From a virus, in the UHGV virus genome UHGV-0144530: 17,582 bases of DNA, one strand, 5' to 3'. Numbering within the stretch: the stretch's first letter is position 1; each line of letters opens with the position of its first letter. The position numbers and the translations under genes were made by a program. Shown here in pieces: positions 1,632 to 13,276 of the stretch. The notes beneath the pieces are model-generated. The model was not told the origin of the DNA. It worked only from the letters and a program-made list of their open reading frames with translations, and did no database searches.

Positions 1632-2143
1632 GCCGCGTTTCCTTCTTTCTTATTAACAATTACACCGTCATATATTTCATTAAGGTGCCCTCTCAACTCC
1701 ATGCGCCTTAATGCAGATAACATGTAATCGCATTCAACCTGCTTATTTCCAGTAAATGGCTTATCGTCAGGATTACCCCAACAGCAATTACCCTTGGGCC
1801 ACCCATGTACTTTCCGTACTCTTCCGTTAACAACGTGAAGTAATCCCCAGCCAGGTGGTAAATCCTCAATTGAAATAATTCCCGGCTCACTAATAAAGAA
1901 TCGCCAGTCGCCCATTCCAAGAGACGGATTTTTACGAAAACGCTTTTTTCTATCTGCCAACAAGTCAGCACGAGAACACTTCGCCTCTATCAGGCATGAT
2001 GCTGAATTTCTGAATCCCATAGCATCTGGCTGTTCTCCGGTACTGGTTACAGCTATAAAGCGGTCATGAAAACAAACCTTGAACCCGTTGCGCTTAAGGA
2101 ACTTGTACGCAATCTGACAGAGTTCGCGGTGTGTTAGCGCCAT
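1628..2143 (-). CDS. putative PD-(D/E)XK-fold nuclease-like protein (171 aa)
   Basis: start moved to the ATG at 2143 with RBS AAGGAGAG; motif GEQPDAMGF...(12)...LIEAKCS fits a PD-x(n)-ExK nuclease signature; fold assignment is inference. Confidence 0.4.
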   Translation of the reverse strand: MALTHRELCQIAYKFLKRNGFKVCFHDRFIAVTSTGEQPDAMGFRNSASCLIEAKCSRADLLADRKKRFRKNPSLGMGDWRFFISEPGIISIEDLPPGWGLLHVVNGRVRKVHGWPKGNCCWGNPDDKPFTGNKQVECDYMLSALRRMELRGHLNEIYDGVIVNKKEGNAA

Positions 2144-4020: not shown

Positions 4021-4608
4021 TCAGAAAGGAGGGTAATCGTTCTGGCTGTAACCATAATCATCTGCATGATTCTGGCTTACGTTTTTAGAGCGATTGTCTT
4101 TATCTTTGAGGCTGGCAACCATGTTGGCGATAGTTTCTGGTTGCTTGCCTTCCGCCTTTTCTTTAAGGGTTTGACCTGTTTGTGCAATAAACGGGATGCG
4201 TATTTCCATCTGGTAGCTGTCTGCGCCAGTCTTTTTGTTTGTGGTTAATACTTTCTGGAGCACTAACCCGATTTTCTTTCCATGAAACTCAGGAGCAACA
4301 AATTTACTGGCGGAAACCATATGTTGCGTTAATTGTCCAATCCCGGCACACCCCATCATGGCGTGAACGACATTTGCGCCAAATTTGTTTTCCGTTCCGT
4401 CATTTTTCTGAACACAGACGCTAAGATATTGGATTTTACGTCCGTCGTCGGATTCTCCAGAAAACTCAATAAATTTGGCTCCTTTTTCTGATTGCTTTAG
4501 TTCTGCTTCAGTAATGGTAATGATATGGGCGCCAGTTTCGTTAATAAAACCACCTTGCCCTGCGGTCAGTGCTGCTTCTTCGTTATAAGTAAAAATCACG
4601 TTGCTCAT
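4021..4608 (-). CDS. putative ssDNA-binding / recombination accessory protein with SSB-like acidic C-terminal tip
   Basis: 195 aa; C-terminus ...DDYGYSQNDYPPF resembles the conserved SSB tail (D-D-D-I-P-F); translationally coupled (ATGA) to the upstream AAA ATPase, as in Sak4-SSB modules. Confidence 0.4.
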   Translation of the reverse strand: MSNVIFTYNEEAALTAGQGGFINETGAHIITITEAELKQSEKGAKFIEFSGESDDGRKIQYLSVCVQKNDGTENKFGANVVHAMMGCAGIGQLTQHMVSASKFVAPEFHGKKIGLVLQKVLTTNKKTGADSYQMEIRIPFIAQTGQTLKEKAEGKQPETIANMVASLKDKDNRSKNVSQNHADDYGYSQNDYPPF

Positions 4609-5285
4609 GCGGCGTTTTCCTTAATTTGATGAACATTATTGATGCCGTAGTAATCACAAACAGTGGCATCGACGAAAGAGAGATCGTTATCAATCTCATT
4701 GGAATCAAACATTCCCATTGGGGATTTGACAGTGTCTGCACCGTTGTTTTTCGTGGTGAAAAAGAACTGGTCATCGCGGGTAAGAGTGCGAAGAACTATA
4801 GTAAACATGCCTTCGACAGTGATTTTCTCGTCCAGCATTTTGCCGATAGTTTTCATTTTCACGCGCCCCATAGGGGTTTCTTCGGTATGTGCAAGAAAAT
4901 AGACTCTCAGGTCATCAGGTGCATCCTGTGCAGCCTTAATCACCTCCCATGCGTGGCGGCCTATCTCAGTAAATTTATCAAACGATTTTTCTTCTGAGCG
5001 GCGCATAAACTCATTGCTCATCACATACTGGAAGTCATCAACAATAACGATTCTTTTTCCGTATTCGTGAGCACGCTTAATTGCAGCAACTATTACGTCC
5101 CATTTGTCAGTGGTAACTACGGTTCCTTTTTTTGCTCTGGCATCCCATGCAAGCCAGTCTTTTGATTTAAATGGTAGCGGCTTGCCTATTGGTTTTATAA
5201 GTATTGCTTCCTCTGGATTGATATTTCTCATGCTGGTTGATTTTCCGGTGCCAGATTCACCGAGTATTAATGTCGCAGTTCCCAT
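4605..5285 (-). CDS. RecA-fold AAA_24-type ATPase (Sak4-like recombination protein)
   Basis: 226 aa; Walker A GESGTGKST near the N-terminus; hydrophobic strand plus acidic residues IVIVDDFQ as Walker B; size and position (where lambda gam/bet/exo sit) match phage Sak4-like ATPases; RBS GAGG. Confidence 0.55.
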   Translation of the reverse strand: MGTATLILGESGTGKSTSMRNINPEEAILIKPIGKPLPFKSKDWLAWDARAKKGTVVTTDKWDVIVAAIKRAHEYGKRIVIVDDFQYVMSNEFMRRSEEKSFDKFTEIGRHAWEVIKAAQDAPDDLRVYFLAHTEETPMGRVKMKTIGKMLDEKITVEGMFTIVLRTLTRDDQFFFTTKNNGADTVKSPMGMFDSNEIDNDLSFVDATVCDYYGINNVHQIKENAA

Positions 5286-5782: not shown

Positions 5783-5811
5783 GCATATAAAAAGGCCCTC
5801 ACACTGGAGGG
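5783..5811 (-). terminator. intrinsic terminator-like hairpin on minus strand
   Basis: minus-strand CCCTCC-agtgtg-AGGG followed by CCTTTTTATAT; upstream of cIII. Confidence 0.4.
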
Positions 5812-5874
5812 CAAAGAAGATTTCCAATAATCAGAACAAGTCGGCTCCTGTTTAGTTACGAGCGACATTGCTCC

Positions 5875-5902
5875 GTGTATTCACTCGTTGGAATGAATAC
5901 AC
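5875..5902. repeat. perfect 9 bp inverted repeat with 10 nt spacer
   Basis: GTGTATTCA-ctcgttggaa-TGAATACAC; in the untranslated stretch between the orf66 terminator and cIII. Confidence 0.6.
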
Positions 5903-5930
5903 AGTGCAGTGTTTATTCTGTTGTTTATGC

Positions 5931-5960
5931 CAAAAATAAAGGCCACCATCAGGCAGCCTT
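5931..5960 (-). terminator. intrinsic terminator on minus strand
   Basis: minus-strand AGGCTGCC-tgat-GGTGGCCT (8 bp stem with 2 G-U pairs) followed by TTATTTTTGG; the orf66 stop codon lies in the loop. Confidence 0.55.
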
Positions 5961-6149
5961 GTTATTCTGTTTACCAAGTTCTCTGGCAATCATTGCCGTC
6001 GTTCGTATTGCCCATTTATCGACATATTTCCCATCTTCCATTACAGGAAACATTTCTTCAGGCTTAACCATGCATTCCGATTGCAGCTTGCATCCATTGC
6101 ATCGTTTGAATTGCCCACACCATTGATTTTTATCAATAGTCGTAGTCAT
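5949..6149 (-). CDS. hypothetical Cys-rich small protein (66 aa)
   Basis: MTTTIDKNQWCGQFKRCNGCKLQSEC... with four Cys in the first 27 residues; ORF-track ORF. Confidence 0.45.
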   Translation of the reverse strand: MTTTIDKNQWCGQFKRCNGCKLQSECMVKPEEMFPVMEDGKYVDKWAIRTTAMIARELGKQNNKAA

Positions 6150-6219
6150 AAGGATAGTCCTGGTATTGTTCCATCACATCCTGAGGATGCTCTTCGAACT
6201 CTTCAAATTCTTCTTCCAT
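6133..6219 (-). CDS. candidate very acidic micro-protein (28 aa)
   Basis: MEEEFEEFEEHPQDVMEQYQDYPYDYDY; RBS GAGGTG 4 nt upstream of the ATG at 6219; 3' end overlaps the start of orf66; below the ORF-track size cut-off. Confidence 0.3.
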   Translation of the reverse strand: MEEEFEEFEEHPQDVMEQYQDYPYDYDY

Positions 6220-6227
6220 ATATCACC

Positions 6228-6338
6228 TCAAATAAGTGGTTTGCTGCCTAATTTCATTTTCTGGCGACCAACACAAGTCACACCCATTTCACTGCGTGGC
6301 TTGCGGTAGTAAAGATTGTGCCTGTCTTTTAACCACAT
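6228..6338 (-). pseudogene. fossil 3' end of a lambda-type N gene
   Basis: open frame ending ...NLYYRKPRSEMGVTCVGRQKMKLGSKPLI-stop aligns with the lambda N C-terminus ...RTWYSKPGERGITCSGRQKIKGKSIPLI; the frame is open back to about 6392 but has no N-terminal half, ARM or convincing start. Confidence 0.6.
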
Positions 6339-6400
6339 CAGGCTCGGTGGTTCTCGTGTACCCCTACAGCGAGAAAAATAGTAAAATCCTCTTCACCCCC

Positions 6401-6763
6401 TTACTTTGTCAGGGGGATATCTCCTTCAGTTCTGACCATTCGCCTTAATACTTTCCTTAAGTCGATGTAAAGTTGAATGTCTCCATTTGCTGCGGCATCA
6501 GCCATTTTTTGCCTGACAAGCAGTAATGTTTCATACGGCTCAATAAGAATATCGTCATGAGTAATTAGGTGAAGCGTTGCCGCATCAACTATTCCTAGAG
6601 CTGCGCCAAGTATCAAAAATTCCCTGCTATTTTTGTCGCATGAGGAGATAAGCGTATTTAGCGCATACCTAATATTCTTTATAGCTGTTGTTAATGCTGC
6701 AATTTCTTCTATGGCGTCTTCTTCAATGAGCTTTTTAAGCTCATATTTTTCTTCCTGACCCAT
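6401..6763 (-). CDS. hypothetical protein (120 aa) immediately downstream of N
   Basis: ATG at 6763 with RBS GAGG; the N stop TAA lies inside GAGGTAATTATG; ORF-track frame 6401..6847 trimmed; no recognised motif. Confidence 0.5.
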   Translation of the reverse strand: MGQEEKYELKKLIEEDAIEEIAALTTAIKNIRYALNTLISSCDKNSREFLILGAALGIVDAATLHLITHDDILIEPYETLLLVRQKMADAAANGDIQLYIDLRKVLRRMVRTEGDIPLTK

Positions 6764-6765
6764 AA

Positions 6766-7035
6766 TTACCTCGCCGTCAGTTGTTTTGATTTCCGGTAGC
6801 CTGCCGCGTAAATAGCTACGTTTGGCAGGCAAATACTTCCACTGCATTCATCTGCCTTCTTGCAGCGAAGGCTTCCGAGTGATGCTGCTTTATCTGCTCT
6901 GACGCAACCAGAGAGCTTTAGCGCAATTTTTCGTGCCAATCGCTGTTCTTGCATTGCCTGTTCACGTTGAGCCTGTCTGCGTGCTCTGCGGCGATTTCTG
7001 GCGTTATCATCAGCCAGATAAGTAACGATTATCAT
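6766..7035 (-). CDS. N: N-like transcription antiterminator (89 aa)
   Basis: arginine-rich motif NARNRRRARRQAQREQ near the N-terminus; strong RBS GGAGG 5 nt upstream of the ATG at 7035; lies downstream of nutL; ORF-track 6766..7164 is an unsupported in-frame 5' extension. Confidence 0.6.
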   Translation of the reverse strand: MIIVTYLADDNARNRRRARRQAQREQAMQEQRLARKIALKLSGCVRADKAASLGSLRCKKADECSGSICLPNVAIYAAGYRKSKQLTAR

Positions 7036-7465
7036 GTTGACCTCCGATGATTGGCTTTGGTGATTAGGTGGACGGTACTGATCTCCGGCTTGGTTAGTGC
7101 TTCGCCTGGTCATTATCACGCCTAGTGACCCCCTGAGGATCGTCTCCTCGCCAGTGCAGGTCATATCGCATCAGTCTGCGCATTCACCCAATCCCAAAGC
7201 CAACTACTCTTTGACTCACACTCTCGCAGTGAGCGCGCTCATGCCATTGAGTCTCTGCCGCTTCATCGCCGCTGATAACCGGTGCGCGTCTGGCATTCGC
7301 GCTGCTTTACCGGAGCTACTTTTAATATATTGACCCTAACCCGATGCTAAGCAGGCTCGCTCAATGGCGACTCAGGGCAGCATCATTACTGCTGCATTGC
7401 CTTTCGGCTGCGGTCTAACCGCGTTAGTGCACCATTACGGCACCTCCTGTTTGGTTAAACTCAGT

Positions 7466-7507
7466 TCCCGCATTTCGGCGGGACAATCCCATCAATGTTA
7501 AAGAGCC
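7466..7507 (-). promoter_or_regulatory. nutL (boxA plus boxB)
   Basis: minus-strand boxA GGCTCTTTAACA (plus coordinates 7496-7507) followed 12 nt later by hairpin TCCCGC-CGAAAU-GCGGGA (7466-7483); the boxB is identical to that at nutR. Confidence 0.7.
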
Positions 7508-7552
7508 TGCCAATCTGTTCCGTTTGGCTTCCAGCGTCCTGCTGATGGCTTA

Positions 7553-7637
7553 AAGATAACTTAGGTTATAGGTGTGGTCAATAACCTAATTTATATTTTA
7601 TGGTAAATAAGTTATAAGTGATGGATAACAAAGGTAT
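7553..7637 (-). promoter_or_regulatory. OL operators and pL promoter
   Basis: 14 bp palindromes matching ATAAC-N4-GTTAT at 7556-7569 (perfect), 7581-7594 (1 mismatch) and a degenerate copy near 7624-7637; minus-strand -35 TTGACC (7576-7581), 17 bp spacer, -10 TATCTT (7553-7558). Confidence 0.55.
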
Positions 7638-7759: not shown

Positions 7760-7794
7760 AAAAGAAAACCCGGCGCTGAGGCCGGGGGTTTTTA
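7760..7794. terminator. bidirectional intrinsic terminator
   Basis: CCCGGC-gctgag-GCCGGG with an A-run on the left and a T-run on the right, so a U-tract follows the hairpin on either strand; ends the cI-orf98 transcript. Confidence 0.65.
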
Positions 7795-8088
7795 GTCTTT
7801 TCTTTTGCTTAGCATTTCGTCGATTTCTAAGTCAATACGATATTGATCTATTGCTTTTCTCTCGTTTGGGGTTGGTATTTTATACTGTTCAATTAGATCT
7901 GTTGTGTATTTTATTTCATCTAATGTGATTTTTATATCAGAGAGAATCTCTTTTATATCAATTAGATGCTCTTCTTCTTTTGCGCGATTAGAGCTATGTT
8001 CAATCATTTGAGATAGCTTTTTGCTAATGCTTAGCAAAACAAAAAGAATGATGACCAAAACAACAACAAAAACTATCAGAAATTCCAT
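7792..8088 (-). CDS. membrane-anchored coiled-coil protein co-transcribed with cI (98 aa)
   Basis: hydrophobic N-terminal helix EFLIVFVVVLVIILFVLLSI then a charged, heptad-like C-terminal half; strong RBS GGAGGG 4 nt upstream; about 40 nt downstream of the cI stop; strongly AT-rich relative to neighbours. Confidence 0.6.
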   Translation of the reverse strand: MEFLIVFVVVLVIILFVLLSISKKLSQMIEHSSNRAKEEEHLIDIKEILSDIKITLDEIKYTTDLIEQYKIPTPNERKAIDQYRIDLEIDEMLSKRKD

Positions 8089-8128: not shown

Positions 8129-8836
8129 TTACCAACTATGAGACGACCAGAATACTCTGCCAATAATCCTTACGGTTTCATGAAATTCATCTCTATCCAT
8201 TACTTCATCCGGGTACTCTTCGCGATTTATTGATCTGATTATCACCGATGTAGGGGTGGCGATTAATGTTTTTACTCGTAACAAATCAGACTGGCAAATA
8301 GCGTAGGTTTTACCATCTCTGATTGTGGTATCTTGCGTGTTAACACCAACAACATCGCCATCGTGAAGCGTTGGTTCCATGCTTTGCCCTACAACCCTAA
8401 CTAGCTTGGCTGATCTTTCTGATACTCCCATCTTTTTCAGATAGTGCTTTCTGAAAACCAAAGAGAACTCCGATGATTCCTCTAGCTCGCAGCTACCGCT
8501 TCCAGCTGAAAGCGAAACGTTAAGAAGAGGCAACGCAACAAACTCGTCATCGTTTCTTTTAATGTCTTCCCATACCACAGCTTTTAAAGATGACTCACGG
8601 ACATTGGATGGTTCTTCATGTGCACCATCCCTCATTTCACCAATACCAGAACTAAGCCATTCAGGACGCACTTTTAAAGCATTGGCTAATTCAACCATCT
8701 TGCGAGATCCGTTTGTTTTACCGGACGACATCTTCTGTATGGCTGGCTGAGATATTCCAACCATGTCAGCAAGCTGTGATTGTGATACCCCTGCTGAGCT
8801 CATGGCTGCATTTAGTCTTTCTGCGAATGTTTTCAT
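8129..8836 (-). CDS. cI: CI-type prophage repressor (HTH plus S24 LexA-like peptidase domain)
   Basis: N-terminal HTH (VSQSQLADMVGISQPAIQKM), Ala-Gly cleavage site in SLSAGSG, catalytic Ser in GQSMEPT and Lys in LRVKTL; ATG at 8836 abuts the operators; ORF-track 8129..8866 begins at an upstream TTG. Confidence 0.85.
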   Translation of the reverse strand: MKTFAERLNAAMSSAGVSQSQLADMVGISQPAIQKMSSGKTNGSRKMVELANALKVRPEWLSSGIGEMRDGAHEEPSNVRESSLKAVVWEDIKRNDDEFVALPLLNVSLSAGSGSCELEESSEFSLVFRKHYLKKMGVSERSAKLVRVVGQSMEPTLHDGDVVGVNTQDTTIRDGKTYAICQSDLLRVKTLIATPTSVIIRSINREEYPDEVMDRDEFHETVRIIGRVFWSSHSW

Positions 8837-8848
8837 ACTCACAAATCT

Positions 8849-8914
8849 ATAACTACGGTTATCCAAAGTAAAATAACAAAGGTTATTGCTATTTTTTATA
8901 ACTTGAGTTATCTT
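8849..8914. promoter_or_regulatory. OR operators with divergent pRM and pR
   Basis: three perfect 14 bp palindromes ATAAC-N4-GTTAT at 8849-8862, 8873-8886 and 8898-8911, centres 24-25 bp apart; plus-strand -35 TTGCTA (8886-8891), 17 bp spacer, -10 TATCTT (8909-8914). Confidence 0.65.
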
Positions 8915-9600: not shown

Positions 9601-9741
9601 AAACAACTCAGTCCTTACCAGGACAAAATTCACAAACACATACTACGTGATCGCTTCCTGTCCAGCTTCAAGCAGCCTGGTCGATTCCGGGCTGAGTTGG
9701 AAAAAGTGAAGCTGATGCAGAAGGAGAAAGGTCATGAGTAA
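9595..9741 (+). CDS. small ORF (48 aa) using the lambda O translation-initiation region
   Basis: CAGGAGTCATTATGACAAA is the same as the lambda O RBS and start, but the protein diverges after Met-Thr; overlaps the start of the O-like gene. Confidence 0.35.
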
Positions 9742-10594
9742 TCTTGCAACCGTAACACATTTAAGGCCCTCACAACGGCCTGTGGAGCGTCGTGTGGCAG
9801 AAGTTGAAGATGGTTATACCCGTCTTGCAAATGCCCTGTATGAAGAGCTTATCGGCGCAGATTTAACAAAAAATCAGAGCAAGGTTGCCCACGCCATATG
9901 CCGTAAAACATACGGATACGGTAAAAAGATGGATCGCATCTCTGATAGTCAGTTAGCTCAAATTACCAGGCTGCCAAGACAGAAGGTAAACAAGGCCAAG
10001 AATGAGCTTATCGCGATGAAGGTAATCCTTCGCGAAGGCCAGCAAATCGGGCCTAACAAGAACATCGAGGAATGGCAAATCGAAGGGTGTCACTACTCTG
10101 GTGATAATGTCACTGCATTGGTGACAAAAAGTGTCACCAAAACGGTGACAGCGCTGTCACCAAAACAGGGACACACAAAAGAAACTATTACAAAAGAAAA
10201 AAGAAATAATAAAAACACTATGTCCGAAAGTGTTCGGACGGAGTGTGAAAAATCATCTGACCGTCACGAAGAAACCGACAAGGCATTCGAGGAAATATTC
10301 TGGTGTGCAGGCATGCGGAAAGCCGGGAAAAAAAACGCAGCTTCGGCATTCAGAACACAGTTCAGGGAATGGCGTAAAACTACCAGGGGTACGGCAAGCG
10401 AGTTTGCCACGATGCTGGCAGAAGACATCGCATGCAGGAATGGTAAGCAGTTCGGATTCGACAGGTTGTTACCATCGAGCTACTTGAACGGTCAGCGCTG
10501 GAACGACGAAAAGCCAGAAACCATTCAACCACAATCCAAACCATCATCCGCAATCACCGTATCGAAAACTGGCTACGTGTTTTTCGACAGGTGA
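9734..10594 (+). CDS. O: replication initiator, lambda O family, with a divergent C-terminal domain
   Basis: N-terminal half aligns with lambda O (ADLTKxQxKV...RKTYG...MDRIxDSQL...GPNKNIxEW; linker [15 protein letters not shown]); the C-terminal 100 aa are unrelated; RBS AAGGAGAAAGG. Confidence 0.8.
10086..10225. other. origin of replication: iteron array plus AT-rich region inside the O-like gene
   Basis: inverted-repeat iterons on a GTGACA/TGTCAC core (GGTGATAATGTCAC 10100-10113, GGTGACAAAAAGTGTCACC 10120-10138, GGTGACAGCGCTGTCACC 10144-10161), then an AT-rich stretch that closely parallels the lambda ori AT-rich element. Confidence 0.7.
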
Positions 10595-10597
10595 ACC

Positions 10598-10705
10598 ATG
10601 AAATCAAAAATCAAATCGCTACTGGTCGCTGGTTATAACCACGGCTGGTTAAGTATTTCGTTTGTCGATTTCTGGTTTAAAAATCTCAATCTGAGGGAAT
10701 CATGA
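10598..10705 (+). CDS. candidate small ORF (35 aa) coupled to the primase-helicase
   Basis: ATG at 10598 follows GGTGA and the O stop; its stop overlaps the primase-helicase start (ATGA); below the ORF-track cut-off. Confidence 0.25.
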   Translation: MKSKIKSLLVAGYNHGWLSISFVDFWFKNLNLRES

Positions 10706-12582
10706 GGCCAAGTGAACTTAGCGACCTGCTTTGGGCGCAGGTTGACAGGGTGGCTCCGCACCTGTTGCCAAATGGCAAGAAAGAGGGGCATGAGTGGGTT
10801 GCCGGTAACGTCAACGGTGACAAGGGAAACAGCCTTAAGGTCAACCTTAGCGGCAAGAAAAAATGGGCTGATTTCGCTGAGGGAGACGGCGGTGACATGC
10901 TTGATTTGTGGATGGCATGTCGTGGAATTAACCTGCATCAGGCTATGCAGGAAGCGAAAGCATTTCTCGGTATCAAGGATGACGATCACCATTTCGATGC
11001 CAGACGTGAGAAAAAATTCTCCAGACCTGATCGCAAGAAAATCGCCCGCTACGTTACCAGAACAGAATCCCATCTTGAGTACCTGCAATCGCGTGGCATA
11101 TCGCCAGAAATCGTAAAGCGCTACGAGGTTGTCAGCGGCAAGGTGTGGAATGGAGAGCGGGAACTGGATGCTCTGGTGATTCCGTACAAACGCGATGGTG
11201 AGTTGTTGCAGGTCAAGCGAATCAGCACTGAGCGCCCGGACGGGAAGAAAGTCATTATGGCAGAAGGTGATTGCGAACCTTGCCTGTTCGGATGGCAGGC
11301 TCTGGACGCTGGCGTGAGGGCGGTTGTACTTTGCGAAGGCGAAATTGATTGTATGAGCTATGCGCAATACGGCATCTCGGCGTTATCCGTACCGTTTGGT
11401 GGAGGGAAAGGCGCTAAGCAACAGTGGATTGAGTTTGAGTATCACAACCTCGACAGGTTTGAGGAAATATTCATCTCGATGGACGTTGATGATGTTGGTC
11501 GTGAAGCCGCAAGGGAAATCGCAAGCCGACTCGGTGAACATCGTTGCCGTCTTGTTACTCTGCCGTGCAAAGACATCAACGAATGCCTGATGAACGGTGT
11601 TACCGAGGATGAAATCTGGCAGTACATCGGCACGGCATCCTACTTCGATCCTGAAGAACTCTACAGCGCGCGAGAGTTTTACCAGGACACTATCAACGCT
11701 TTCTACGGCAAGCAGCAGTATCTGTTTAATCCACCGTGGGAATCTCTGGCAGATAAATTCCAGTTCCGTGAGGCAGAGTTGACGCTGGTCAATGGTGTGA
11801 ACGGTCACGGAAAAACGGAGGTTGTCGGGCATATGGCACTTGAGGCAATGCGTCAGGGTGTGAAGACGTGCATCGCGTCACTTGAGCTGAAGCCTGGTAT
11901 TCTCCTTAAGCGCCTTACCCGTCAGGCGACGTGCTGCAAGATGCCGCCAGTGCTGGAAATTGACTCTGCATTTAAATTTTATGACGAAAGACTTTGGGTG
12001 TTTGGCCTGACCGGAACGGCGAAAGCCGACAGGCTGATCGAAATATTCGACTACGCTCGCCGCCGATACGGGATCCAGTTATTCATCATCGACAGCCTGA
12101 TGAAATGTGGCATAGGCGACGATGACTATAACGGGCAGAAGGCGTTTGTTGACTCGATTTGCGACTTCAAAAACAAAACAAACTCCCACGTCATTCTCGT
12201 TACTCACTCGCGAAAAGGAGACAGCGAAGAAAAACCAACCGGGAAAATGGACGTAAAAGGCTCTGGAGCGATAACAGACCTGACAGACAACCTTTTCATC
12301 ATCTGGCGTAACAAGGCTCGCGAGAGAGCGTTACAGAGAGTTCAGAGTGGTGAAAAGATGTCAGAGAAGGACGAACAGCTACTGGCATCTCCGGCATCTG
12401 TTTTGATGCTTGAAAAACAACGTAACGGCGAAGGTTGGGAAGGTGGTGTCCCGTTGTTCCTTGACGAGCAATCGCACCAGTTCCTGCAACTTGAATCAGG
12501 ATCGCCATATAGCTACATCGCCAATATGCCGAAATCGGAATATGACGAGGCGTGGCGACAGGAAAACGTGACGGAGTATTAA
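10702..12582 (+). CDS. bifunctional DNA primase-helicase (TOPRIM plus DnaB-like RecA-fold helicase)
   Basis: 626 aa; TOPRIM-like acidic segments (VVLCEGEIDCMSY, ISMDVDDVGRE) in the N-terminal half; helicase Walker A GVNGHGKT and Walker B LFIIDSL in the C-terminal half; occupies the slot of lambda P. Confidence 0.75.
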   Translation: MRPSELSDLLWAQVDRVAPHLLPNGKKEGHEWVAGNVNGDKGNSLKVNLSGKKKWADFAEGDGGDMLDLWMACRGINLHQAMQEAKAFLGIKDDDHHFDARREKKFSRPDRKKIARYVTRTESHLEYLQSRGISPEIVKRYEVVSGKVWNGERELDALVIPYKRDGELLQVKRISTERPDGKKVIMAEGDCEPCLFGWQALDAGVRAVVLCEGEIDCMSYAQYGISALSVPFGGGKGAKQQWIEFEYHNLDRFEEIFISMDVDDVGREAAREIASRLGEHRCRLVTLPCKDINECLMNGVTEDEIWQYIGTASYFDPEELYSAREFYQDTINAFYGKQQYLFNPPWESLADKFQFREAELTLVNGVNGHGKTEVVGHMALEAMRQGVKTCIASLELKPGILLKRLTRQATCCKMPPVLEIDSAFKFYDERLWVFGLTGTAKADRLIEIFDYARRRYGIQLFIIDSLMKCGIGDDDYNGQKAFVDSICDFKNKTNSHVILVTHSRKGDSEEKPTGKMDVKGSGAITDLTDNLFIIWRNKARERALQRVQSGEKMSEKDEQLLASPASVLMLEKQRNGEGWEGGVPLFLDEQSHQFLQLESGSPYSYIANMPKSEYDEAWRQENVTEY

Positions 12583-12687
12583 ATGACAATCTACATCACT
12601 GAGCTAATAGCAGGGTTATCGTTACTAATGGTTCTTACTGTATATATTATTAAGTATATTCTTTATGCGAATAAAAAAAACAATTGA
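12583..12687 (+). CDS. candidate single-TM micro-protein (34 aa)
   Basis: MTIYITELIAGLSLLMVLTVYIIKYILYANKKNN; the ATG directly follows the primase-helicase stop, with GGAG 8 nt upstream; AT-rich; its 3' end overlaps the HNH start across an A8 tract. Confidence 0.3.
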   Translation: MTIYITELIAGLSLLMVLTVYIIKYILYANKKNN

Positions 12688-13276
12688 TCACGATGAGCTT
12701 CTGTCAACATTATCATATGACTCAGAAACAGGAATATTTAAATGGCTAAAAACAAATTCAGTAGTAAGAGTAAAAGGTAGTATTGCTGGAGGTGTTAGTG
12801 GTGGTTATATATGCATTAGCATAAATAATGTTTTGTATTATGCGCATAGGCTTGCTTGGTTCTATGTATACAAAAAATGGCCTCCTAAGTTTATTGATCA
12901 TGTAAATGGGAACAGACTTGACAATAGGATTTCAAATCTAAGACTGGCAACAGAGGAGCAGAATGCAAGAAACATTGTAGGTAATAGGTTAAACACATCC
13001 GGTGCGATTGGAGTGTCTTGGGATAAGACAACTGGCAGGTGGAAGTCTTATGTTGGTTATAAAAATAAGACAATATCGTTAGGGTATTTCGATAGCAAAG
13101 AAGATGCAGCATTCATAGCAGCACTAGCAAGAAAGAAACTATATGGAACTTATGCGAGTAAAGCACTTAATTGCGAGCATGAGCTTTTATCTCAATTTAA
13201 TAATGATGAGGATAAACTTGCGGAATATCTTAAGGAAAAATCTAAAAGGACTCGAAAGCGTGTTAAAAAAAGATAA
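12665..13276 (+). CDS. HNH endonuclease with C-terminal AP2 DNA-binding domain (homing-endonuclease-like)
   Basis: HNH_3-type motif YAHRLAWFYVYKKWPPKFIDHVNGNRLDNRISNLRLATEEQNARN followed by an AP2-like segment SGAIGVSWDKTTGRWKSYVGYKNKTISLGYFDSKEDAAFIA; AT-rich codon usage; no obvious RBS. Confidence 0.75.
   Translation: MRIKKTIDHDELLSTLSYDSETGIFKWLKTNSVVRVKGSIAGGVSGGYICISINNVLYYAHRLAWFYVYKKWPPKFIDHVNGNRLDNRISNLRLATEEQNARNIVGNRLNTSGAIGVSWDKTTGRWKSYVGYKNKTISLGYFDSKEDAAFIAALARKKLYGTYASKALNCEHELLSQFNNDEDKLAEYLKEKSKRTRKRVKKR

Follow-up and report, generated by a model that had tools for sequence, protein, structure and literature searches.

The small proteins of lambdoid pL operons act as binders and modulators of host targets, and most of the accessory genes in these operons, the one described here apart, require N-dependent read-through. 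In the SieB-Esc system of P22 and lambda, Esc is the in-frame C-terminal product of sieB. Here we describe a gene at positions 6401-6763 on the minus strand of a 17,582-nucleotide stretch of the virus genome UHGV-0144530 (the window, by which we mean the whole stretch of DNA analysed), which is the early region of a lambdoid prophage. The gene is hkaQ of coliphage HK620 and is already known; what is modestly new is its behaviour as a cassette together with the tail of the N antiterminator gene in front of it. As to function we favour, at a rough probability of 40%, a reading in which HkaQ would be an immediate-early, non-enzymatic binding protein directed against a function of the host or of a rival prophage, with a role in counter-defence or host takeover.

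The hkaQ coding sequence (120 amino acids (aa) plus stop) runs from the ATG at 6763-6761 to the stop at 6403-6401. Its product begins MGQEEKYELKK and gives a full-length profile match to PHROG 7374, a family of unknown function (E = 3.7e-79, residues 1-120 against positions 1-120 of 120). On the minus strand the junction with N reads ...ACG GCG AGG TAA TT ATG GGT..., that is, the N stop TAA (6768-6766) is followed by two bases and then by the hkaQ ATG at 6763. As read from the sequence, the translation initiation region of hkaQ (6764-6775, minus strand) comprises GGCGAGG, the N stop and the spacer TT; the GAGG Shine-Dalgarno (SD) element at 6772-6769 lies within the last N codons (Ala-Arg), 5 nucleotides (nt) ahead of the ATG. 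An original prediction, made from the letters alone, had placed the ATG 3 nt after the N stop and the ribosome binding site inside the end of the N coding sequence, and the junction agrees with it.

The same prediction had called the gene unrecognised, and here it was mistaken. The gene was first annotated as hkaQ in 2001 in HK620 (NP_112050) and has annotated counterparts in HK629 (gp44) and HK630 (gp41); besides belonging to PHROG 7374, its protein falls inside a 497-member NCBI cluster, in which an identical HkaQ is recorded from 43 contigs. The window protein is 97.5-98.3% identical in amino acid sequence, over all 120 residues, to those of HK620 (97.5%), HK629, HK630 and Stx1a_10051. At 95-100% DNA identity, hkaQ is present in 96 of 5426 complete Escherichia coli genomes, many of them from O26-type Shiga-toxin strains, and its carriers include the Stx1a phage Stx1a_10051 and O26:H11 strains. 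Among 42 IMG/VR loci the amino acid identity is 96-100% in all except the frameshifted locus L055. The 185,579 GTDB species representatives contain no hkaQ. The gene matches no housekeeping phage family and is conserved in related prophages. NCBI and RefSeq often misname the protein 'antitermination N domain protein'. The only paper found to mention hkaQ (PMC4506075) uses the stretch between hkaP and hkaQ simply as a neutral site for insertions, and no functional data on hkaQ were found in the literature on HK620, HK629, HK630 and sieB/esc.

The hkaQ family consists of three lineages, all in enterobacterial lambdoid prophages. The first is that of E. coli and E. albertii; the second, represented by protein P0003, is 64% identical and comes from six metagenome-derived contigs (L008-L013); the third, a short lineage at 38-41% identity, has 92-93 aa from the conserved Met and comes from a Symbiopectobacterium purcellii prophage (P0008, L056) and from metagenomic contigs (P0012 and P0013, L058-L060), where P0012 is annotated as starting at an upstream TTG, which makes it 115 aa long. 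These three lineages were all that a word-indexed search of 5.8 billion proteins returned, with a single sequence and with a six-sequence profile, and an exhaustive HMMER scan covering 1.84 billion representatives contributed P0008 alone. The long repeat proteins P0007, P0010 and P0011 were rejected as relatives, being multi-stretch artefacts; P0011 shares only a ...PHDDHLVE... repeat. The core common to the three lineages is about 80 residues long and is kept down to 38-41% identity. Within it, conservation is highest in ...AI.NIR..L... and, after that, in IVDAATLHLIxH(D/N)DxLxEPY.

An in-frame ATG further upstream, at 6847, would give a 148-aa form, which is used in some NCBI records, and 158-aa starts have been recorded as well. 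The shorter start is supported because the divergent homologues P0003, P0008 and P0013 all begin at the Met of the 120-aa form, and because the 28-aa extension of the 148-aa form is merely the conserved 3' end of N read off-frame. The junction sequence GCGAGGT(A/G)AnnATG is common to the E. coli lineage and those of P0003 and P0012; L056/L057, of the Symbiopectobacterium (P0008) lineage, retain it minus the in-frame stop. Among 60 hkaQ loci the SD element is conserved in every one, and the order of SD, stop, 2 nt and ATG is found in all except L055 and L056/L057.

Between the E. coli and P0003 lineages (the latter represented by L009), synonymous divergence (dS) is about 1.6 and the ratio of non-synonymous to synonymous divergence (dN/dS) is 0.17, which argues that the reading frame is protein-coding and under purifying selection. 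Taken with the open reading frame (ORF), the PHROG match and the recurrence among genomes, this bears out the claim of a genuine 120-aa gene abutting N. The ORF is intact in 59 of the 60 loci, degraded prophages included; the only disrupted copy, in L055 (4001-4361), has a 1-bp frameshift near codon 50. Copies of hkaQ vary by at most 5 nt in 354, and the C-terminal tail differs by allele, ...IPLTK as against ...IPLSDAKQGIQAKLE. Perhaps hkaQ is a functionless hitch-hiker on the recombination-prone 3' end of N, an idea that fits the extreme uniformity of the E. coli copies, among which non-synonymous variants are not clearly in deficit, the one frameshifted copy, and the lack of detectable relatives beyond three small lineages. 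We consider this highly improbable, given the dN/dS value of 0.17 at such a dS, the conservation of start codon, SD and core down to the most distant homologues, and the persistence of an intact ORF in decaying prophages.

The gene in front of hkaQ in the window is the resident N antiterminator gene (6766-7035, minus strand; 89 aa; PF25694 N_peptide, E = 2.2e-15; PHROG 271), which has an HK620-type N-terminal arginine-rich motif. Its C-terminal segment (6766-6849, minus strand), ECSGSICLPNVAIYAAGYRKSKQLTAR followed by the stop, is of the P22-gp24/H-19B type and is the piece of N that accompanies hkaQ. Junctions were extracted from the 60 loci and their flanks clustered. The ATG of the E. coli, P0003 and P0012 lineages comes 2 nt past the stop that follows CLPxVA.YAAG(Y/H)RK..Q.TAR, the C-terminus of P22-gp24/H-19B-type N proteins, and the constant partner of hkaQ is the last 60-80 nt or so of the P22/H-19B-type N gene; in L056/L057 the CLP...TAR motif is gone and the GCGAGGT junction alone is left. 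This tail is preceded by N bodies of at least six types that are unrelated to one another (HK620, phage 21, H-19B/933W, P22-like and two more), and the 60 loci have at least 12 unrelated immunity regions upstream and at least 15 different contexts downstream. Because N bodies, immunity regions and downstream contexts vary in this way around a near-constant hkaQ, the comparison indicates that hkaQ is mobile cargo, with a left boundary in the 3' end of N, SD included, and a right boundary at its own stop codon. The survey of gene neighbourhoods thus found co-occurrence with the N tail and not with one type of N or immunity region. The proposal that hkaQ had been brought in with the immunity module does not survive this variety of immunity regions and N bodies, nor the fact that the HK620-like segment of the window, 6388-7060, ends inside N.

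The invariant adjacency to one type of N tail could be explained if HkaQ were an accessory factor of N, binding the P22/H-19B-type C-terminal domain or RNA polymerase and tuning N stability or antitermination; co-translation with N and the name given by NCBI would agree with this. However, 277 phage records encode this N tail and only seven of them carry hkaQ. Three of the records that encode the tail without hkaQ were inspected: in P22 sieB comes after N, and in PA27 and in phi367 some other small ORF does. hkaQ is intact in six E. coli loci (L006/L036, L018/L019, L023 and L029) whose N has been lost, cut short or frameshifted, leaving a tail relic of 13-44 aa. The working N of L058 ends in a tail of lambda type, and what remains there of the P22-type tail is an out-of-frame relic before the hkaQ homologue, at the same 2-nt spacing. 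In addition, neither the 120-aa nor the 148-aa form of HkaQ matches an N model in Pfam or NCBIfam, and linkage between tail and gene is to be expected anyway because the genes are 2 nt apart and the SD lies inside the tail. A role as N factor is therefore very unlikely. With hkaQ in seven of the 277 records that encode the tail and surviving the loss of N, the comparisons indicate that it is a conserved but dispensable accessory gene and not a cofactor of N. The suggested translational link to N holds as far as adjacency and the position of the SD in the end of N are concerned; that coupling is needed does not hold, as hkaQ stays intact where N is broken or absent.

Several of these loci are worth recording in their own right. 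MBT-5-type prophages (L006, E. coli MBT-5, NZ_CP058682.2, 3626-4363) have no N ORF between cI and hkaQ, and about 60 nt of the 3' end of N are left. The out-of-frame relic of L058 reads ...CLPQVALYAAGHRKSVNITAR followed by a stop, right before the HkaQ homologue and behind a complete N with lambda-type tail. The small ORF of phage vB_EcoP_phi367 (L061, 2079-2303) encodes 74 aa, belongs to PHROG 5305 and starts 3 nt past the N stop, and that of PA27 (L062, 2134-2385) encodes 83 aa and starts 58 nt past it.

A blastn mosaic map of the window was built against HK620 and phage 21. Positions 5785-6313, with a terminator, ral and the last 86 nt of phage 21 N, match phage 21 at 97%; the stretch 6319-6399 (minus strand) is an 81-bp HK620-type spacer, 99% identical to HK620 (blastn to L001-L004), which in HK620 lies beyond the convergent gene hkaP; hkaQ and N, 6388-7060, match HK620 at 97.5% DNA identity; and a shared central part of N, 6847-6938, also matches phage 21. 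By comparison with HK620 and Stx1a_10051, hkaP is cleanly absent from the window, and there is a 12-bp overlap at the junction, 6388-6399. The original prediction had placed hkaQ between the resident N and a fossil N, and this relic is indeed present: positions 6228-6313 (minus strand) match the final 86 nt of phage 21 N at 97% identity, and translate to ...YYRKPRSEMGVTCVGRQKMKLGSKPLI and a stop, where the C-terminus of phage 21 N is ...YYSKPRSEMGVTCVGRQKIKLGSKPLI and a stop. In the simplest reading of these segments, a cassette made up of a P22-type N tail, hkaQ, hkaP and the spacer would have entered a phage-21-like N between its central region and its C-terminal domain. This insertion would have produced a complete chimeric N and left the old phage-21 tail as a relic, and hkaP would later have been lost across the 12-bp overlap. 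The Stx1a_10051 phage retains the full arrangement from before that loss. More generally, the comparisons indicate that insertion of the cassette into or behind another N yields either a chimeric working N with a relic tail, as in the window, or a working N with a relic P22-type tail, as in L058; chimeric N together with N relics would thus be due to the way hkaQ and the N tail behave as a cassette.

The P0003 lineage follows the same theme: its H-19B-type N is followed by hkaQ and a GhoS-family gene convergent with it, and a complete phi80-type N lies downstream of all three. L009 (1009-2948), and likewise L008 and L010, has two complete N genes, the H-19B-type before hkaQ and the phi80-type about 900 nt further on, and L009 has a 45-aa hydrophobic ORF nearby, at 2114-2251.

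Upstream of N, the region of the pL start and boxA-L (7489-7554, minus strand) is 97% identical to positions 2861-2926 of the phage 21 locus L005, where both are annotated. A consensus scan found no terminator-like site between N and hkaQ. The first terminator-like hairpin past hkaQ, at 5939-5960 on the minus strand, overlaps the stop of ral, and a second one follows on the pL strand at 5812-5795; in HK620, tL1 is annotated downstream of hkaQ. The next intact pL gene, 250 nt downstream of hkaQ, is this restriction alleviation gene ral (5949-6149, minus strand; PF11058, E = 1.6e-48; PHROG 1055). No promoter-like site was found upstream of the hkaQ ATG, the sole weak match lying inside the gene at 6616-6588. 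The hairpin at 5939-5960 is the likely end of the N-independent transcript, and hkaQ would be transcribed and translated with N as an immediate-early gene, before N-dependent read-through is required. Expression in the first wave of the pL transcript, as had been claimed, is thus the natural expectation because no terminator parts hkaQ from N.

HkaQ might instead be a moron product, made in the lysogen and defending the host against other phages. The slot is rich in exclusion genes, the GC content of hkaQ (0.39) is below that of N (0.49-0.54), its distribution is patchy and mobile, and in MBT-5-type prophages, where N is lacking, hkaQ is the first ORF past the repressor region. Nevertheless, the gene lies on the pL strand right behind N with no promoter-like site upstream of its ATG, it has no match in PADLOC, and the known morons of the region (sieB, hkaP and rex) are transcribed apart from pL, sieB and hkaP on the opposite strand. 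We regard this explanation as rather unlikely.

The protein is predicted to have a mass of 13.5 kDa and an isoelectric point of 5.0, and AlphaFold2 runs with three and with six sequences gave four to five helices at a mean local confidence (pLDDT) of 74-76 and a global score (pTM) of 0.45-0.47. HkaQ is thus predicted to be an all-helical, mildly acidic, soluble protein. Neither the 120-aa nor the 148-aa form matched anything in Pfam or NCBIfam, and PHROG 7374 was the only PHROG family returned; with a cut-off of E <= 1, Pfam gave no N model for these two forms or for P0001, P0003, P0008 and P0012; PADLOC-DB 2.0 returned no defence family for HkaQ at E <= 1; Foldseek comparison of the models with the Protein Data Bank (PDB) and BFVD gave nothing at E < 0.5; and a profile search of PDB sequences gave no match. 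No catalytic signature is conserved. Remote-homology, structure-prediction and fold searches thus upheld the earlier remark that no motifs could be recognised, and no known fold emerged.

Several specific candidates were set aside or judged less likely. An HD-type metal site at H65/H69/D70/D71 has the wrong spacing, and D70 is Asn in P0012. In the E. coli protein, residues 49-67 could be taken for a transmembrane span on their Kyte-Doolittle value of 2.0, but their Hessa insertion energy is +2.8 kcal/mol and a conserved Asp and His lie among them. Such a span is not conserved in the short lineage, where the equivalent segment has a Kyte-Doolittle value of only 1.5 and Hessa energies of +4.9 to +8.3; residues 49-67 are more likely a buried core helix of a soluble protein. 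Kinship with SieB/Esc (PF14163) was rejected (no Pfam match, and an hhalign probability of 0.2% against the SieB alignment), as was kinship with HkaP, to which there is no profile similarity. HkaQ also does not qualify as an N protein (PF25694), whether by match to an N model, for either of its forms, or by an arginine-rich RNA-binding motif.

These results suggest that HkaQ would act by binding another macromolecule, since no enzymatic motif is present. In the reading that we favour it would most likely neutralise or modulate some function of the host or of a resident prophage that endangers the phage on infection or induction, and the conserved stretch IVDAATLHLIxH(D/N)DxLxEPY would be the candidate contact surface. 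The class of target is suggested by the slot, the timing and the neighbours (Ral, cIII, Kil, Gam/Abc, P22 gp17 and SieB/Esc). Small genes directed at hosts or competitors are close by: ral in the window, SieB, GhoS-family and HkaP genes converging on hkaQ elsewhere, and in P22 the order 24-sieB-ral-17.

A number of points weigh against this counter-defence reading. The role is drawn only from position, timing and the absence of catalytic features, and the timing is itself deduced from the arrangement of genes and terminators. The pTM is low, and the most conserved motif is modelled poorly, with pLDDT below 50 at residues 69-76. The short lineage lacks the two C-terminal helices, so only about 80 residues are kept family-wide. 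Finally, variants within E. coli show no depletion of non-synonymous changes, although the differences are few and distorted by the frameshifted L055, and with so little diversity the conservation within the species could mean recent spread and not selection.

A convergent gene abuts or overlaps the 3' end of hkaQ in all three lineages: hkaP in E. coli phages (as in HK620, HK629 and HK630), a SieB-family gene in the short lineage (seen in L056 and L058, facing the HkaQ homologue), and a GhoS-family gene in the P0003 lineage (PF11080, 29 bits, overlapping the hkaQ 3' end in L009). HkaP (L001, 3307-3801) has 164 aa, with a coiled coil and a zinc ribbon, and belongs to PHROG 1244. The HK620 record calls it a putative superinfection exclusion protein; an identity with SieB was rejected, as there is no SieB match and the coiled-coil and zinc-ribbon architecture belongs to PHROG 1244. 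HkaP-family proteins at 27-63% identity occur in the Pseudomonas Mu-like phages DMS3, JBD30 and D3112 (orf25) and in Klebsiella, Salmonella and other E. coli phages, and in PhiR29 an HkaP-family gene lies next to cI. In the segments of interest in L058 (566-1177, minus strand, and 1649-1912, plus strand) there is, besides the N-tail relic, an HkaP-like gene split into ORFs of 82 and 114 aa; it lies between cI and N, within 1 kb of the HkaQ homologue. We regard HkaP as a candidate for an uncharacterised prophage defence gene.

This arrangement raises the idea that HkaQ is a self-immunity partner, protecting the phage, in the manner of Esc, from the convergent exclusion or abortive-infection gene (HkaP, SieB or GhoS-family). 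The presence of such a gene at the hkaQ 3' end in all three lineages is consistent with it, and so is the linkage of the two genes: the seven phage records with hkaQ, and no others, carry near-identical hkaP (at least 99% protein identity), hkaP at 95% DNA identity or more is found in 66 E. coli genomes as against 96 for hkaQ, and the two are 30 nt apart in every E. coli genome for which both positions are listed. An immunity gene that may stand alone beside a toxin that never does is the pattern expected of such pairs, and the HkaP-family gene close to the distant HkaQ homologue in L058 extends the association. The Esc/SieB pair of P22 offers a precedent: Ranade and Poteete reportedly found in 1993 that P22 requires Esc and antisense RNA to survive its own SieB. 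On the other hand, the convergent partners come from three unrelated families, about half of the E. coli hkaQ loci, the window included, have no convergent gene, the more distant relatives of HkaP are in phage records that are none of the seven with HkaQ, HkaQ has no profile similarity to SieB/Esc or HkaP, and recent common descent would equally give tight linkage of near-identical hkaP and hkaQ. The self-immunity explanation is therefore doubtful. Its boldest form, a long shot of much the same order, would make HkaQ the founder of a new immediate-early family for counter-defence or self-immunity, disarming exclusion or abortive-infection genes of resident lambdoid prophages, of the HkaP, SieB or GhoS types that converge on it. 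HkaQ would be made with N before other phage proteins, and the N-tail cassette would insert into the essential N gene without inactivating it.

If a counter-defence or self-immunity role were true, HkaQ would be a new protein family in the arms race between phages and prophages, Shiga-toxin converting phages included, and a function would also be suggested for the neighbouring orphan hkaP, whose family is spread from E. coli to Pseudomonas Mu-like phages. Whatever the function, the cassette is a checkable example of mosaic evolution, in which a cargo gene brings a replacement C-terminus for an essential regulator, and its structure would explain the chimeric N proteins and N relics of many prophages. 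For now, hkaQ is a hypothetical gene that had been annotated before, is very narrowly distributed and offers no lead to its function.

The rest of the window contains other features of a lambdoid early region. An AAA_24 (Sak4-like) gene at 4605-5285 lies among leftward recombination and accessory genes, and the cI-type repressor gene is at 8129-8866. Between the latter and pL, in the position of rex, is a 98-aa, very AT-rich ORF (7792-8088, minus strand; GC about 0.32) with an N-terminal hydrophobic segment, which matches PHROG 18389, of unknown function. A strong, bidirectional, terminator-like GC hairpin comes after it, at 7769-7786; the same gene occupies this position in E. coli H19 (L007, 1996-2292). 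The ORF looks like a prophage-expressed moron co-transcribed with cI. Further ORFs are cro-like and cII-like, and the replication module (9734-12582, plus strand) consists of a lambda O-type initiator (PF04492) and a 626-aa Toprim/DnaB-like primase-helicase that replaces lambda P. A 203-aa homing-endonuclease-like ORF with HNH_3 and AP2 domains (12665-13276, plus strand) separates the primase-helicase gene from the nin region. Q-like, holin-like and endolysin-like ORFs were assigned by position and sequence only.

When the locus is compared with known systems, the closest are HK620, HK629 and HK630, in which the same gene starts 2 nt behind an N of 90 aa and the junction sequence is identical; in them, hkaP converges after hkaQ, whereas the window has the phage-21 N relic and ral instead. 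Lambda Ral, cIII, Kil and Gam and P22 gp17 and Abc1/2 resemble HkaQ in being small, early, dispensable and patchy products of the same operon and strand, with no similarity of sequence, profile or fold to HkaQ in Pfam, PHROGs or Foldseek against PDB and BFVD. Unlike most of these accessory proteins, HkaQ would be encoded upstream of the first pL terminator and so be immediate-early like N. The SieB-Esc system of P22 and lambda occupies the same chromosomal slot, P22 sieB converging on the end of gene 24/N, but hkaQ is a separate gene on the opposite strand, resembling SieB neither in sequence nor in profile, and the window has no sieB. Finally, the PHROG 5305 gene of vB_EcoP_phi367 sits in the identical slot, behind an N that shares its last 24 residues with the N of the window, and yet its sequence is unrelated to HkaQ; its function is likewise unknown. 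Because phi367, and PA27 as well, hold unrelated small ORFs there, the position after N appears to be a general cargo slot.

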